64,000 bases of DNA from contig OZ024751.1 in NCBI GenBank assembly GCA_964016885.1, forward strand, positions 9,424,001 through 9,488,000. The letters are read 5' to 3'. Positions within the stretch are counted from its first letter, which is position 1, and every line of letters starts with the position of its first letter. This document shows positions 2,184 to 60,329 of the stretch, one piece after another. The position numbers and the translations under genes are program-made. Under the pieces are notes generated by a model that saw nothing but the letters and a program-made list of their open reading frames with translations, was not told the origin of the DNA and searched no databases. The DNA is from Eledone cirrhosa (Eukaryota).

Positions 2184-2773
2184 AGAGAAAATTGAGGTTG
2201 GTAATGGCACATGGAATATATAAGAGACAGAATACTTTTTTGTGAAAAAACATAATTTTATAAGGTAAGGAAATAATAACGGGTATAAAAAATGACCGGT
2301 TTCGATGGGTCTGCAAAAGCCATCTTTTCAAATGTTGATTAATATTAAGAAAAATTAACAATACGAAGAGTTAAAATTTGAGATTTGAAAATTCAAGTAT
2401 AAAATTCATTGTGGGATTTCATAGCAGTTTTCATCTAGGTAGCAACAACAGGTTGACTGCTGTGTCCCTTTCTGGTAGTGACCAGAAAGGGACACAGCAG
2501 TCAACCTGTTGTTGCTACCTAGATGAAAACTGCTATGAAATCCCACAATGAATTTTATACTTGAATTTTCAAATCTCAAATTTTAACTCTTCGTATTGTT
2601 AATTTTTCTTAATATTAATCAACATTTGAAAAGATGGCTTTTGCAGACCCATCGAAACCGGTCATTTTTTATACCCGTTATTATTTCCTTACCTTATAAA
2701 ATTATGTTTTTTCACAAAAAAGTATTCTGTCTCTTATATATTCCATGTGCCATTACCAACCTCAATTTTCTCT
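2184..2773. repeat. Near-perfect palindrome (arms ~293 bp, 4-nt loop AGTG at 2477-2480)
   Basis: TCTGGT-AGTG-ACCAGA centre; ORFs 1960..2361(-) and 2596..2793(+) share an identical N-terminal ~58 aa. Confidence 0.95.
2621..2668 (+). ncRNA. Degenerate hammerhead ribozyme in palindrome arm (mirror copy at ~2289-2336, -)
   Basis: AACAT-TTGAAAA-GATGG-(11 nt)-CCATC-GAAAC-CG-GTC-ATTTT; stem II is perfect, core is mutated relative to CTGAAGA. Confidence 0.5.
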
Positions 2774-2831
2774 ATAACCTTCGTTTTGTGTAGAAAATTA
2801 CACTTTTCATATATATATATATATATATATA

Positions 2832-2995
2832 TACAATGATATTAAATAAATGGAAACTATATTTATAAAACCATATTTATTCTATATATTTCAAGGATAC
2901 CAAAACTTTGGTACGCTTTGATCAGATAAAATACAAAGTTTGTTTTATAAATTTTGACATAACCAAGAAAAGATACTTTAACGGTTCAAGTTTTT
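2832..2995 (-). repeat. Dispersed (AT)n-abutting repeat, related to 48345-48525
   Basis: Reverse complement of 48345-48525 aligns by eye (ATAAATGGAAACT..TTTATAAA..CCATA..GGT(A/G)CGCTTT.ATC.GATAAAATACAA). Confidence 0.65.
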
Positions 2996-3737
2996 CTTGG
3001 ATAGTGAAGGGAAACGAGAAGAAAAGTCAGATATTTCAAATTATTAAGATGAGTATGCAAATGAGGTTGAAGTATAGGGCTGAAAAAACGTTATTTTAGA
3101 CGCTATGCAGAATTTAAATAATTAGGATATATATATGTATGAGTAGGAAGAAGAAAAAAGAAAGAAGAGCTTGTATTTATGTTAATTTAAAAGGAATTAA
3201 CAATTTGCGGGAATGGTGGAATATGATTCCAGAATTTAAATTTGTTTAGCTATATTATGAGTTATAATATTGTATATATAATCAATTAGATTATATGAAG
3301 AATTATGGCTGTAAGTAGATTTTATCTTATTATATTAGAATAGTTTGTAAGTATATAAATATCTATATAGATTAATAATTGTGCATGTATAAGTATTATA
3401 GAAATAGAAATAATTTACAATTATTAGTTGTTTATATTTCTAATACGAGTTACGAAGGTTGTTGATTTTGCATTTTACATAAAAAAACAAGTTGTACGAG
3501 GAGAATAATTTGTAGATTCGAATATTTTGTTCCAACATTGAAAATGTTTTCAGAATATTGTTAATTTAGCGAAGTTATATAGTTTATCGTGCATATTATA
3601 CTATAATATAATGTTTATGTTTGCAGAATTGAAAAGGGAAAGAAAACTCCAATCATGTTTGTTAACCGTTAAATTTGATGAATGATTTACTCAGAAAATA
3701 TATAGAGAAAACTATATATTATTGTGTGTGAGATTAG

Positions 3738-3958
3738 GGCGGTGGATTGGCAGTATCGGTAGAGCGTCGGACACCATGCTTTGCAGCAGAGTGTTACAAC
3801 CCTTTATGATCCGAGTTCAAATCCCGCCTAGGTTAACTTTGCCTTTCATTCTTACGGACTCGATAAAATAAAGTACCAGTCACGCACTAGGGTCGATTTC
3901 ATCGACTTCCCCCTCTACCAAAATTGCTGGCCTTGTGCCTATATAAGAAACCATTATT
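3738..3958 (+). mobile_element. tRNA-derived SINE (family S1), full length
   Basis: A-box-like TGGCAGTATCGGTAGAGC, B-box GAGTTCAAATCCC, central GCCTTTCAT..GATAAAATAAAGTACCAG, tail TTGCTGGCCTTGTGCC; many copies in window. Confidence 0.85.
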
Positions 3959-4498
3959 TTCTGTGAGATTAATTCCAATTGTATATTATTTTAGTCGAAA
4001 GATGTGTGAAAGTTTGAAGATCAAAAGGAGAGGAAAAAAGTCATGTGCATTTCGAAGAACTATCGTAAAGATGAAAGGCAAAGTTAACTTTCAGAATGTC
4101 AATTAAAGATTATTAATCTACATCTAAAAAAAATATATTTAGAGGGGTATCATTAGGAAAATAATGTCAAAAGGTAAAAATAGTAAAAAAATATATTAAA
4201 AAATTAAAAAATTAATGTCAAATGGTAAAAATAGCATAAATATTAGAAAATTAAGAAGGAAGATCATTTAAAAAATTGAAATTTAAATTTTTAAAGAAAA
4301 TAGGATCATTTTGAAGGTGTATAAGATATAGTCAAATGTAATGAATATTATAAATTAAAAATACTGCTTTTCATTTTCCTTTCTTTGATTCGTCAAAGTG
4401 ATATTAGTGAAAAATTGAGAGGGACAATTCTTTTCAAAAAGAGTTTTATAATGTATATAAAGTATATAAAGTATAAACGGTTTCGATGCATTAATAAA

Positions 4499-4607
4499 AT
4501 TAATTGTTTCTACTTTTGGCACAAGGCCAGCAATTACCCAGTGCATTACTGGTACTTTATTTTATCGGATGAAAGGCAAAGACAACCTCGGCGAGATCTG
4601 AACTCAT
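4499..4607 (-). mobile_element. SINE S1 partial
   Basis: TAATTGTTTCTACTTTTGGCACAAGGCCAGCAATT...GGTACTTTATTTTATCG. Confidence 0.75.
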
Positions 4608-57419: not shown

Positions 57420-57570
57420 TGTGTGTCTGTGAAATATATACATATATACCAGGTCCAACCACTAAAGAACCAAACTCTCACTGTCACTGCCTCCGTCTCT
57501 CCCGCTCTCCTAATCTCTCACTATTACAAGCAAATGGGGACCCACGGACTGGCTGCGGCCTTGGCGGACA
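57420..57570 (+). repeat. Partial copy of the dispersed ~280-bp repeat
   Basis: CACTGTCACTGCCTCCGTCTCTCCCGCTCTCC is identical to 8017-8048. Confidence 0.65.
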
Positions 57571-58175
57571 AAATAGAGAAATTACCAGTCAAGTATTGAA
57601 GATGATATCATCTTCTGCATCTATCCTTAAACATAAAACAGTGTGATTGTATGACAAAACAAACTTTTTTTTTAAGCCTATAATTGGTGGCATTATAAAT
57701 ATAATGTACTCAAATTTAAACTAATTATATTTTTAATAATATACCGTTTCATTATACTTTAAGTATGTCCAAGTCAAGACTAAATTATCTGGCAGTCGAG
57801 TATTGCTCCCTCATCTAAATTATGTGCTTTTCTGCCAACATTAGAAATCTTTATTAAATAATGTAAGTTTTGGCACAATATTGTAAAATTCTTTTGAGAT
57901 AAGATCTTATATCAGTAACAAGATTAATATGTTTGATATTTATATATATTGACGTTCAATCAAAAATGACTTACTTTCCTTCCTGCTTTCGTACATATCG
58001 CGAGTCGTGCGTAGTTTTTGAGCTTGTATAAACTTAAATATGTATAAAAAGAGAAACCAAATGACCCAAATATGTTATGTTAATCAGATCTTATGTTTTA
58101 CATAATTGAAAAACCATCCACACACACACACACTCACACACAGATATATATATATATATATATATATATATATAT

Positions 58176-59105
58176 AGTTAAAGAAAGAAGAGTAACATGG
58201 TTGGCTGTACAATAAGGGCTTTATTTAAAGTACTGACAATTGTTTCGTTGATCAGGTGTGTCTAGAGTTCGCTAATCGCTTGAGGTTGCGTCAATCTATC
58301 TCCAATACATTGTTAACCACGGGTCAACACATCAGAGTACGTAGATATGAAAATAATTCACTCAAGGCAAGACTTATATAGAAAAACAACGTAAAGCCAA
58401 GACAATAACATCAATAATAAAAAAGCGTATAATTAAAACAATAACATCAATAATAAAACATGTATGTTAAATAGATAGACAAGTTACAGATGTAAAAAGT
58501 AGAAAGTAAAATATAAGATAGGGTACATTAAAAAATAATAAGAAAAAATAATAATTGCACGCACTCTCATTTATTTCTTTATATTTTCCATTTCCTCATT
58601 TTCTTATTATTTTTTAATGTACCCTATCTTATATTTTACTTTTTACTTTTTACTTTTTACATCTGTAACTTCTCTATTTACCATACATGTTTTATTATTG
58701 ATGTTATTGTTTTGGTTTTACGTTGTTTTTCTATATAAGTCTTGCCTCGATTGAATTATTTTCATGTCTACGTACTCTGATGTATTGACCAGTGGTAAAC
58801 AATTTATTAGAGATCGATTGACGCAACCTCAAGCGATTAGCGAACTCTGAACTCACCTGATCAACGAAACAATTGTCAGTACTTTAAATAAAGCCCTTAT
58901 TGTACAGCCAAACATGTTACTCTTCTTTCTTTAACTCTTATTATTCCAAGTATAACCTGCATAGAAATTACCGCGAACTCGCTGCATAACTAAGGAAAGA
59001 TCTTGTTAAGTCAAACAAAGCAGTATGTTAAAAATATGCACGACGCAGAGTACTCGTAACCTCTAACTGGATTACCTATAACGAAAACTTGTTATCCGTT
59101 TTGTA
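58176..59105. mobile_element. Head-to-head foldback of family A, HHRs at 58230-58340 (-) and 58772-58882 (+)
   Basis: Arms ~58176-58546 and ~58599-58936; ~170-nt tail on the right arm only. Confidence 0.85.
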
Positions 59106-59427
59106 CATATATATATATATACACATATATATATATATATATATATATATATATATATATATATATATATATATATATATATATATGTATATATATATGT
59201 GTGTGTGTGTGTGTGCGTGTTTATATATATATATATATATATATATATATATATATGTGTGTGTGTGAGTGTGTGTATTTATTTTTTTATATATATATAT
59301 ATGTATCCAGGCAATGTATCGTTAGGTTACTGTAGGTTCACCCAGGTGACCACTCGATGTTTAGGTTCAAGTTACTAGCGAGGTGAAGAGCTAGACAGAG
59401 TGTAATATAATAATACATGAACGATTT

Positions 59428-59509
59428 GTTAAGCCTTCATTGCGTTTATTGATTGGTGATCAATAGCGGAACGCACGTCACCAATCAATAAACGTAATGA
59501 AGGCTTAAC
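59428..59509. repeat. Small foldback related to the 48770-48805 terminus
   Basis: GTTAAGCCTTCATTGCGTTTATTGATTGGTGA / TCACCAATCAATAAACGTAATGAAGGCTTAAC; GGAACGCACGTC resembles GAAACGCGCGTC. Confidence 0.7.
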
Positions 59510-59592
59510 AAACCATCCGTGTATCATTATATATATATATATATATATATATATATATATATATATATATATATATATATATATATATATAT

Positions 59593-60329
59593 AATGTAAG
59601 TATGTATGTATACGTACATACATATATGTATACAGACGTACAGTAACATGACAAACAAGCGAACAAAGCTGCGTTATAATAAACGTCGGCTAAATTGATG
59701 CGTGCATATATGTATGTGTACCTGTATGCATATGTGTGTATATATATATATATATATATATATATATATATATATATATGCATGCTACTGTACGTCTGTA
59801 TACATATATGTATGTACGTATACATACATACTTACATTTAAGTAAGTGCCATACTAAGAGTGAGAAATGAAATTTCGTTTTCATTTTTTTTCAACTTGTC
59901 GTTTTCGGTATGCCTGACCGATTTAACTCACTCAATATGCAAATTAGGCTGCTCAGCCGTTAATTTTCATAAGGAAAGTATATACTTTCGAACGTTCAAC
60001 TATCTGGCAGATGGGTAAACGGTGCTGATGATAGCTAACAAGCTTGAAACTAGTACATCGTTCCTGTGTCAGTGTTGAACAAAAAGGTGACGTGGTTGCC
60101 TTAACACCGTATGGCATAAATTCAGGCTGTTCGGTTTGTTGACAAACAAGCGAACAAAGCTGCGTTATAATAAACGTCGGCTAAACTGATGCGTGCATAT
60201 ATATATATATATGCATGCTACTGTACGTCTGTATACATATATGTATGTACGTATACATACATACTTACATTTAAGTAAGTGCCATACTAAGAGTGAGAAA
60301 TGAAATTTCGTTTTCATTTTTTTTCAACT
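59593..60329 (+). mobile_element. Retrozyme-like non-coding partial tandem (~490-nt unit) with HHR and an inverted 5' piece
   Basis: 59650-59896 is repeated at 60141-60329; 59593-59650 is an inversion of 59781-59838. Confidence 0.75.
60018..60062 (+). ncRNA. Minimal type I hammerhead ribozyme, intact core
   Basis: AACGGTG-CTGATGA-TAGCT-AACA-AGCTT-GAAAC-TA-GTA-CATCGTT. Confidence 0.85.

Follow-up and report, generated by a model that had tools for sequence, protein, structure and literature searches.

Published Penelope-like elements (PLEs) combine an inverted 5' copy, a one-sided tail and (TA)n targets (PMC3846280, PMC8557442), structures that the sections of both papers cited here explain by self-priming or endonuclease resolution, not by twin priming; the origin of PLE tandem and inverted structures is named as open (PMC8557442). 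The Poseidon PLE protein of Anolis carolinensis nicks and extends both strands in vitro, using two adjacent internal RNA start sites that bound the tail, with no difference in start-site use between strands, and a dimer is predicted; the cited sections of that study do not treat inverted products or end pairing and leave the post-priming steps unvalidated (PMC11167929).

Here we analysed a 64-kb stretch of Eledone cirrhosa DNA (the window). Its fold-backs resemble EN+ PLE insertions as described for Pen2a_Av and others (PMC3846280; Fig. 2 legend of PMC8557442) in their head-to-head inverted copy with palindromic junctions, in the tail on one inverted end only, in (TA)n targets without visible target duplication and in hammerheads within the terminal repeat; a tail over the first ORF codons may be a further likeness in family B. 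Unlike the insertions described there, the fold-backs of the window have tails of 33-170 nt (30-40 in print), most are ORF-less solo pairs, and the tailed side can be reduced to an 11-nt remnant. The preliminary description of the window had partly acknowledged that inverted pseudo-LTRs and 3' extensions are known from PLEs, and this grammar is indeed in print. The likeness to Poseidon would lie in the nicking and extension of both strands, the two adjacent internal start sites and the AT-rich targets; in contrast, Poseidon priming needs no homology (PMC11167929), whereas the short sites here show excess microhomology with the flank, and Neptune/Nematis and Hydra types are represented among the ORFs of the window. 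As in the twin or dual priming described for L1, a second nick would prime a second cDNA, inverted pieces meet with little or no junction microhomology and, as in some L1 variants, one cDNA would stop inside the 3' tail and leave a remnant only; for L1, however, it is described as a variant route, with a second site that differs between insertions and pieces that normally lack overlap (sections of PMC2837659 cited here), whereas the two sites in the window are internal, fixed and near each other, and the arms usually overlap to form palindromes. The interval 59649-60328, a hammerhead-bearing 433-nt partial tandem without ORF, is like animal non-LTR retrozymes, described as non-autonomous PLE derivatives, but has only ~1.6 units and carries an inverted short arm and a tail; the text of the retrozyme paper has no mention of tail, palindrome or priming (bioRxiv 10.64898/2026.07.22.740005).

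Results

Nine head-to-head inverted pairs had been listed in the preliminary description, and all nine were confirmed at the positions given there (Table 1), the fold-backs between (AT)n microsatellites being head-to-head PLE ends in 9/9. Arm matches/mismatches were 293/0, 66/4, 76/4, 167/4 and 338/8 in cases 1-5, and 57/2, 203/20 (plus indels), 314/17 (plus indels) and 57/1 in cases 6-9; arms were thus diverged in eight of the nine, and 100% identical arms were found in two cases (2184-2808 and the "probable" 37838-38219). The expectation that one arm stops at the repeat tract while the other continues for 30-170 nt was borne out, with tails of 33-170 nt (beyond microhomology 35, 77, 86, 33, 66, 56 and 170 nt, and ~57 nt at 60272-60328 in 59593-60328). 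The tract itself was (AT)n for short arms generally, as described, but not in 2184-2808, where the short arm adjoins (AG)n.

An unbiased scan covered 77 of the 79 islands between (AT)n tracts, two long ones being left out, and flagged 26 as inverted pairs; 15 were dropped as masked-microsatellite self-matches or weak scores, and the 11 kept scored 115-1147, against shuffle maxima of 24-44. An arm end lay 0-1 nt from (AT)n in 9/11 kept islands; at 2184 the arm ends at the (AG)n tract, and at 48007-48281 the pair is internal. None of the 11 kept islands was flush on both sides, and 5244-5435 was near-symmetric and ambiguous. Inner AT tracts divide the inserts at 40250-42650 and 59593-60329, for which separate arm alignments were used. 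Four further inserts, added by inspection, fit the grammar (33477-33620, 44973-47249, 48899-49243 and 59303-59532), and in the first three the tailed side is little more than tail. All 13 oriented two-ended inserts, which come from one window and ~9 families, pair one short end with one tailed end, that is, an inverted 5'-truncated copy with a tail at one end only (P = 1.2e-4 if ends are independent at 50:50; P = 9e-4 if 5244-5435 is scored as symmetric; P = 0.016 for the six inserts of families A and B alone).

Table 1. Positions and structure of fold-backs and related PLE copies.
Feature	Position	Strand	Structure
Case 1, short-ended arm	2184-2481	-	Flush with (AG)n 2136-2188; holds 4-nt centre loop, native upstream family sequence
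Case 1, tailed arm	2481-2808	+	Arm to 2773, 35-nt tail, then (AT)n; degenerate hammerhead ~2626-2664
Family A relative	33477-33620		~52-nt short-ended arm (-) against distal tail only (+); no shared arm
Case 2, family A	33676-33905		Short arm 33676-33744 (-); tailed arm 33759-33828 (+); 77-nt tail; junction repeated, snap-back-like, in hammerhead stem II
Case 3	34180-34432		Arm (-) with 86-nt tail, 34180-34340; 3' half of a hammerhead in short arm (+) 34347-34432; stem II at centre
Case 4	37068-37704		33-nt tail and arm (-) 37068-37272; short arm (+) 37534-37704; spacer of 261 nt containing a direct repeat; each arm with a degenerate, outward hammerhead
"Probable" case 10	37838-38219		132-nt identical arms; 103-nt extension with degenerate inward hammerhead
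Case 5	40254-42648		Short arm (-) 40254-40604; tailed arm (+) 42220-42582, then 66 nt of tail; each arm with an outward, canonical-looking hammerhead; microsatellite and nested family A copy at centre
Nested family A copy	40784-40900	-	Short end at 40784; whole hammerhead region
Case 6, family A	44067-44270		Tail and arm (-) 44067-44202; short arm (+) 44203-44270, ~9 nt longer at centre
Case 7, family B	44333-44886		56-nt tail and arm (-) 44333-44655; short arm (+) 44663-44886; hammerhead at 44583; both 5' ends at nearly equal family position
Family B short-ended copy, 2.2 kb	44973-47238	-	Broken RT and GIY-YIG ORF; parent of case 7
Inverted remnant of family B tail end, 11-12 nt	47239-47249	+	Adjoins (AT)n, far end of 2.2-kb copy
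Family B insert	48899-49243		Tail and 19 nt of arm (-) against 265-nt short-ended arm (+)
Family E short end and broken ORF pieces to its right	49290-53900	-	DKT, CxCX5C (Hydra type); linked by position only
Case 8, family D	58176-59106		Short arm (-) 58176-58546; tailed arm (+) 58599-58936, then 170 nt of tail; outward hammerhead of type I, long stem II
Additional case, family E relative	59303-59532		102-nt tail and arm (-); short arm (+), ~18 nt longer at centre; GAAA half outward
Case 9	59593-60328		58-nt inverted short arm (-), then partial tandem of 433-nt unit (+); hammerhead at 60025; tail ~57 nt; first unit continues past tail
Family B relative	60366-63794	+	Broken PLE ORF (RT, CX4CxxC linker, GIY-YIG); ends at family B short site; Asn-rich insert near start

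That both arms read outward, as had been proposed, held in 9/9 listed cases, each with an outward hammerhead core or GAAA half, most of them partial or degenerate. Orientation relied on what we take to be the hammerhead motif pattern; a strict scan matched, among the nine, only in the 58176 family, the folding z was below -2 in one of six motifs folded, and Rfam gave no gathering-level match for these motifs. Orientation was also set by the parent ORF in 44330-44884 and backed in 2184-2808 by contig depth dropping towards the centre. As in EN+ PLEs, the hammerhead lies in the terminal repeat on the sense strand. The suggested tenth case, 37838-38220, probably does not belong here: the hammerhead family with which its extension aligns appears to point inward (shuffle P ≤ 0.002, the null being raised by T-rich composition), so that it is likely a 3'-side fold-back, a different structure and a counter-example.

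RT followed by a C-terminal GIY-YIG in an attached ORF, the EN+ arrangement, was found in family B only. The pieces at 44973-47238 and 60366-63794 have broken RT (YVDD, DKSG) and YIGET motifs and match 930-1220-aa homologues; Pfam returned no match for 9/9 PLE pieces, and within the window no ORF is attached to the other families. The CX4CxxC in 61964-63163 agrees with the CX2-5CxxC linker before GIY-YIG that is a Neptune/Nematis feature, the two not being told apart, and 51590-53900 shows the Hydra clade features DKT and a CxCX5C linker (both sets as given in the cited part of PMC8557442), its tie to the family E ends being by position only. In family B, an ATG and a 27-codon open frame run across the short site and the tail, open in 2/2 tail copies, and the tail makes up codons ~8-27; the N-terminus of homologue P0065 matches this frame over seven residues (shuffle P = 0.005 for the top one of three picked by eye from 23). 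A terminal repeat and tail that may code for the first ORF codons were seen in this family only, of nine, and the partial-tandem or pseudo-LTR arrangement in 59649-60328 only, other inserts being too short. Foldback or MITE DNA transposons were rejected, since one arm always stops short and the centres vary; unlike such elements, family depth shows a 5'-truncation gradient.

End points mapped per family, set beforehand as a test, were family-fixed on both outer sides and not random. In family B and its relatives seven short ends fall within ~1 nt of one position and three tail ends at one position; in family A and a relative, four short ends share one position and three tail ends lie within a few nt. 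Short ends are at the same base also in copies without an inverted partner. Short-site/flank overlap amounted to 31 nt over nine families, against null values of 8.1 or 14.1 (P = 2.7e-4, stricter null), and tracks the flank, (AG)n included; the "AT-like spot" proposed for internal priming thus holds on average, but not in the two of nine families with 1 nt of homology. Two other elements of the original proposal fell. Priming "at the RNA end" is contradicted by an internal tail end, past which the sequence continues in the tandem 59781-60328, and by the family B tail inside the open N-terminal frame. A self-complementary target is not needed either, since at 2184 it is (AG)n in which the short end was primed, and the in vitro reaction required no homology.

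Centre junctions show 0-3 nt of microhomology or templated scrambles, and small loops belonging to the short arm measure 4, 9 and 18 nt. The short arm reaches further 5' in 44973-47249, 48899-49243, 33477-33620, 44067-44270, 59303-59532 and 2184-2808, and the tailed arm in 59593-60328 and probably in 40254-42648 and 58176-59106; since either arm can extend further, no single snap-back direction accounts for both sets. All four short family B arms (48899, 17050 and both in case 7) start no more than ~15 nt apart, immediately upstream of a presumably YY1-like motif. The centre of case 1 lies at a native TCACT, a word noted as initiator-like for a rotifer PLE (PMC3846280, section cited), and would, together with the family B arm starts, fit run-off at the RNA 5' end. 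Arms overlap by 55-340 nt in 10/13 inserts, by 19 nt in 48899-49243 and not at all in 44973-47249 and 33477-33620. The non-overlapping pieces expected of L1 twin priming are thus not the rule overall; L1-type inverted pieces are present, in microsatellite flanks where target-site duplications are unreadable. In 48622-48834 and 17050-17352, whose far end is readable against a relative, the copy joins (AT)n without a tail remnant, so that two ends are not universal.

The arms of case 1 have two substitutions in common, at 2598 and 2677, which occur in no X4 contig; the 2677 variant was present in at most 13/781 and 11/608 reads and the 2598 variant in 0/9 and 1/19. Derived states common to both arms numbered 11 in case 7 and 27 in case 8. 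Such states may show a common source of the arms, with subfamily or arm-to-arm conversion as the alternative. The short site of case 1 is the end point of one X4 contig, where (CT)8 follows, and its tail site that of one X4 and one X1 contig, where short (AT)n and a different flank follow. Comparison with other individuals thus recovered the family and both end sites of case 1, but no listed record across its whole fold-back, and no read or contig among the matches listed spans a whole fold-back in any case. Moreover, three tail-to-tail duplications are centred on (AT)n (4997/5047, 10471/10564 and 48622/49290), and the 48007-48281 inversion ends at neither a short nor a tail site, and not at (AT)n; because of these and the inward 37838-38219, DNA-level inverted copying is evidently active in the window.

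Discussion

The hairpin-shaped repeats of the window are insertion scars of PLEs in microsatellites. Because one short end always pairs with one tailed end, this consistent pairing suggests that both strands likely start RNA copies at two different fixed sites. On balance we favour twin priming, in which reverse transcription starts from both nicked strands, each using a different one of two internal RNA sites, before the cDNA ends are joined. One strand would prime at the short site and the other at the tail site, in one complex and probably on one transcript or transcripts of one locus, and each cDNA would stop independently, at the transcript 5' end, at hammerhead stem II or early. A tail-primed cDNA halted within the tail would leave an L1-type inversion with a tail remnant; one reading on over the shared region, whether it displaces the first cDNA or has a tandem RNA's second terminal-repeat copy as template, would give a palindrome, the two cDNA ends likely being sealed by end-joining. 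Sometimes the shared stretch may be copied by DNA snap-back instead. Double priming from both cut strands with subsequent joining, as in the preliminary description, finds support in the family-fixed outer ends, the in vitro PLE work and three long short-ended arms that face only a tail or its remnant, which one self-copying cDNA cannot produce. Equal start-site use between strands in vitro, on the other hand, gives no reason for the asymmetry. No intermediate is seen, and genomic end products cannot separate RNA read-through from DNA snap-back for the shared stretch; the common private substitutions and short-arm loops (4, 9 and 18 nt) are just as compatible with snap-back, by which some of the arms were probably made.

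Single priming followed by self-priming, in which the cDNA or, as Arkhipova and colleagues proposed, an antisense template (PMC3846280, Discussion) folds on an inverted repeat and copies itself towards the 3' end before AT-like capture by the other flank, appears unlikely. It predicts arms that are identical, centres in hairpins and a second arm that is shorter of necessity, and would suit the centres in hammerhead hairpins (family A, case 3 and 59303), the identical case 1 arms with their common private changes, the microhomology excess at the short end, and the inverted duplications at (AT)n and 37838-38219, which look like local snap-back events; self-annealing of resected ends also leads to inverted duplications at L1 sites (bioRxiv 10.1101/2024.12.14.628481). 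A tail-primed cDNA, however, cannot yield a short arm reaching further 5' (six cases, one with 2.2 kb against 11 nt), and a short-primed cDNA contains no tail that could be copied; even copies lacking an inverted partner share the short-end base, the case 1 centre has 1 nt of microhomology and no native hairpin, and short-site homology is 1 nt only in two families. A symmetric dimer acting on two independent RNAs, each subunit picking its start site at random, should make at least half of the pairs symmetric, whereas 0/13 are, and the arms have private or derived states in common. We regard it as quite improbable, even though a dimer is predicted and start sites are not strand-specific in vitro (PMC11167929, as cited), dual priming has been proposed for L1 (PMC2837659, as cited), and 40785-42648 is readable as a family A short end with another family's tailed arm, a reading that nested insertion also fits.

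Insertions do accumulate in common tracts (at least seven elements follow one another from 44067 to 49503), and tail-to-tail local duplications are present, as separate events would have it, whether a second copy at or next to an earlier 5' end or a later inversion during repair at fragile (AT)n; such an origin is nevertheless very improbable, with partners of the same family in 13/13, no (AT)n at the centre except in 40254-42648, and partners ending at the complementary fixed site. Assembly or library chimeras could be suspected from the two cases with 100% identical arms, from the lack of a listed record across the case 1 centre and from X4 contigs without its private variants, but are hardly credible: arms are diverged in eight of nine listed cases, a read fold-back would mirror tail and flank too, and an independent contig has the short junction of case 1 as well, the case 1 loop being native sequence.

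A broader form of twin priming, which we offer tentatively and consider somewhat doubtful, makes it the normal, obligatorily asymmetric integration of EN+ PLEs, with one complex using the short and tail sites of a single transcript. The inverted pseudo-LTR would then represent the second cDNA, ended by run-off at the transcription start, a tail remnant of a few bases would be hidden in many copies that look simply truncated, and the short site would fit whichever microsatellite flanks it, (AT)n or (AG)n; insertions would thus have two 3' ends and no true 5' junction.

The anatomy is already known, and the addition is modest and testable. What can be counted is that two like ends never pair, that partners may be tail only, that centres lie at the likely transcript start or in hammerhead stems, and that homology tracks the flank; a vague "inverted repeat plus optional tail" is thereby turned into predictions for a genome-wide count and for the existing in vitro system. 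If true, this would account for the short palindromes that fill microsatellites in such genomes and break assemblies and annotations.

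Recurrent head-to-head fold-backs of element ends

Inverted pairs of Penelope-like element (PLE) ends had been described at nine places in the window, and all nine were borne out. In each fold-back the element ends lie head-to-head, with one arm flush with a microsatellite (short end) and the other arm continuing further 3' (tail end). Hammerhead motifs pointed outward in 9/9 cases, the majority being partial or degenerate, in agreement with the proposed outward reading of both arms; folding of six hammerhead candidates (z from +1.3 to -2.0) added little. A hammerhead-like word at 44367, on the opposite strand of the tail of family B (case 7 and ORF copies), was discarded, its stems I and II being absent.

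An unbiased scan for inverted pairs covered 77 of the 79 islands lying between tracts and flagged 26 of them; 15 were dropped as masked-microsatellite self-matches or as weak. Of the 11 kept islands, nine had an arm ending no more than 1 nt from (AT)n, one had an arm ending at (AG)n and one had an arm ending internally; none was flush on both sides. No such fold-back was found at 19.9–26.6 kb, a stretch without (AT)n tracts. The fold-backs are real and recurrent, and not an artefact. The probable tenth case, at 37838-38219, is likely of another kind: its extension aligns inward to a hammerhead family. Further short hammerhead-like families had no inverted partner in the window; most of them adjoin an (AT)n tract or lie between two.

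Fold-backs and associated features, in window coordinates
Position	Feature	Observation
2184-2808	Fold-back, case 1	
33676-33905	Fold-back, case 2	Family A
34180-34432	Fold-back, case 3	
37068-37704	Fold-back, case 4	
40254-42648	Fold-back, case 5	
44067-44270	Fold-back, case 6	Family A
44333-44886	Fold-back, case 7	Family B
58176-59106	Fold-back, case 8	Family D; 170-nt tail unrelated to family A-type tail of 1-349
59593-60328	Fold-back, case 9	
59303-59532	Additional insert	Ordinary fold-back
48899-49243	Additional insert	Tail plus 19 nt opposite 265-nt short-ended arm
33477-33620	Additional insert	Distal tail only, opposite short-ended arm
44973-47249	Additional insert	2.2-kb short-ended ORF copy; far side carries 11–12 nt of its own tail end as an exact inverted remnant
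37838-38219	Young perfect 132-nt fold-back	Unique side with inward degenerate hammerhead; complex centre with direct repeat
5244-5435	Old fold-back	72/83 matches; ends nearly symmetric
40785-42648	Mixed pair or nested insertion	Family A short end head-to-head with another family's tailed arm, or nested insertion
48007-48281	89-nt inverted duplication	At 5' end of family B-related ORF fragment; ends at neither fixed site
1-349	Family D arm	Followed by family A-type tail in same direction, joined exactly at short site
63876-63912	37-nt tail-end fragment, case 3 family	Adjoins (AT)n; no arm visible
4997-5068, 10471-10590, 48622-49503	Tail-to-tail pairs	Centred on (AT)n
12628-12837, 56099-56316, 907-1038, 13546-13650, 35337-35454, 43929-44046, 5046-5184, 2834-2989, 48362-48525	Short hammerhead-like families	No inverted partner in window
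44067-49503	PLE inserts in a chain, seven or more	Only (AT)n tracts between; serial reinsertion into one microsatellite region
14724-16055 (-)	Broken PLE ORF	RT, Cys-rich linker, GIY-YIG; begins at (AT)n tract; 443 codons open
60420-60930	Asn-rich in-frame insert	~170 codons, in PLE ORF
38280-39253 (+)	LINE-like ORF, 3' part	C-terminal C2H2 zinc fingers (Pfam matches); presumably RTE-like
29419-29856	SINE-like repeat	145-nt tandem, 3 copies; ~15 dispersed copies across window
29995-32644	30-nt minisatellite array	Copies of the SINE-like repeat embedded

Fixed end points and strict pairing

Random arm end-points, which the preliminary description had named as speaking against a stereotyped route, were looked for in families A and B and in case 1, and the ends proved fixed. 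In family B and its relatives, seven short ends lay within ~1 nt of one position and three tail ends at another, 56 nt past it. In family A (the repeat of cases 2 and 6) and a relative, four short ends coincided and three tail ends fell within a few nt, the relative's tail being longer. In contigs from other animals, the short site of case 1 led into (CT)8 (at least one contig), and its tail site led into a short (AT) run, then new flank (at least one contig in each of two runs); these junctions come from the best 20 of 91 loose-end rows and 16 of 336 pieces. Because short and tail ends recur at fixed family positions, the arm end points are not random. The case 9 tail was set at ~57 nt, the computed 301-nt extension overshooting the tail end by design. 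From the arrangements at 1-349 and 58176-59106, tail swapping between families is possible.

Read mapping of case 1 (385 nt, four of ten listed runs) was blind to the short site owing to a cut at 2764. Read ends piling up at 2554, 2601, 2703 and 2767 were rejected as restriction/ligation artefacts (AATT sites, low-agreement loose ends), and an apparent opposite-strand joint from 2452 to 2513 (22 and 23 reads), most simply an indel variant on a partly palindromic reference, was not counted; a 2460-to-2546 joint in one contig was uninterpretable. Summed contig depth was ~92–112 thousand for the arm versus 44–51 thousand for the tail, a ratio in line with short and tailed ends being equally numerous; as the depth is no copy number, it was not counted as support.

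All oriented two-ended inserts, including the four additional ones, joined one short to one tail end (13/13; P = 1.2e-4 under independent choice, 9e-4 with the ambiguous 5244-5435 taken as symmetric); these 13 are partly non-independent, and four were found by inspection.

Priming sites and centres

At the short site, flank and element overlapped by 5, 3, 3, 7, 2, 4, 1, 1 and 5 nt in nine families (sum 31, versus a null mean of 8.1 in random phase and 14.1 in best phase, P = 2.7e-4), and in the case with an (AG)n flank the overlap tracked the type of flank. Short-site homology helps and is not required. The short site and tail of family B lie inside a 27-codon frame from ATG with weak likeness to a homologue's N-terminus. 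Since this frame spans the site and the case 9 tandem sequence runs on beyond the tail, the tail end is internal and not, as had been proposed, the RNA end.

At the centres, six inserts have a short arm that extends past its partner on the 5' side, and in one to three it is the tailed arm that does so. The starts of four short arms in family B lie within ~15 nt of one another, before a motif that we take to be YY1-like. Hammerhead stems hold the centres of family A, case 3 and the insert at 59303, while that of case 2 has repeated small inversions, presumably of the polymerase-theta end-joining type. Derived states common to both arms numbered 11 in case 7 and 27 in case 8 (versus few window copies), and both case 1 arms have two substitutions in common that the family pool almost entirely lacks. 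The case 1 centre has a 4-nt loop that is the short arm's native upstream sequence, and its join (1 nt microhomology, native hairpin absent) lies at a TCACT word resembling a sequence that PMC3846280 describes as initiator-like in a rotifer PLE.

PLE coding remnants and repeat content

The window holds 99 (AT)n tracts (6% of bases) and several broken retroelement ORFs, a repeat landscape that we assume to be cephalopod-like. ORF remnants at 44973-47238 and 60366-63794 matched full-length proteins that combine RT and GIY-YIG at 38–63% identity in aligned pieces, short C-terminal pieces excepted. Both carry a CX4CxxC linker, as in Neptune/Nematis PLEs, and the region 51590-53900 has DKT and CxCX5C motifs of Hydra-clade type, according to the clade features given in a section of PMC8557442. 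The Asn-rich insert resembles N-rich inserts reported in rotifer Penelopes (PMC3846280). None of nine PLE pieces matched in a Pfam search, and an Rfam search returned nothing at gathering level, its E-value matches being discarded as miRNA look-alikes of hairpin or microsatellite type. Exact-pattern scans of metagenome contigs found neither family A nor family B.

Double priming as the probable origin of the fold-backs

In their anatomy the fold-backs match PLE insertions already in print, here in new families. This anatomy is drawn in Fig. 2 of PMC8557442, a paper that also describes (TA)n targeting and regards the mechanism as unresolved. The portions of PMC11167929 consulted describe both strands as nicked and extended, with two internal start sites bounding the tail and a predicted dimer; a search of its supplement gave no matches in the text, and a model may stand in the figure PDFs. 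For L1, twin and dual priming are described in PMC2837659, tail-remnant variants among them. Neither an explicit model of twin priming for PLEs nor a count of PLE end pairing came up in our literature search; such a model may be contained in the cited 2002–2006 Pyatkov/Evgen'ev/Arkhipova papers, which lay outside it. The strict short/tail pairing and the tail remnants, observed in one window, are the only additions to print.

The preliminary description had both cut strands of a self-complementary (AT)n target priming cDNA on the element RNA, one at the RNA end and one internally. Double priming survives as the best reading of the fold-backs; the RNA-end site does not, and a self-complementary target was judged not to be needed. 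Against its universality, two copies meet (AT)n at the far end with no remnant, the 48007-48281 inversion ends at neither site, 37838-38219 reads inward, and three tail-to-tail duplications are centred on (AT)n. The latter look like DNA-level copying: the terminal 17–20, 27 or 214 nt of a neighbouring element are inverted across the tract at 96–100% identity, the copies' own 5' end lying on another (AT)n, which looks like (AT)n hairpin self-priming at a break.

On balance we consider it likely that double priming gives the best account, the two sites being internal and a self-complementary target dispensable. A nick on each strand would leave two 3'-OH ends facing each other, and their extension on sense RNA would place the element 3' ends outside and the 5' ends together. 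Double copying of the overlapping stretch could come about through read-through with displacement, through a tandem RNA whose second terminal-repeat copy serves as template, or through DNA snap-back. Because the ends are fixed on both sides, some partners consist of tail only and either arm can be the longer, we infer that each outer end was primed on a template containing the site, most simply RNA. Since pairs of like ends are absent, the two primings were likely dependent, as would be expected if one transcript or one asymmetric complex served both.
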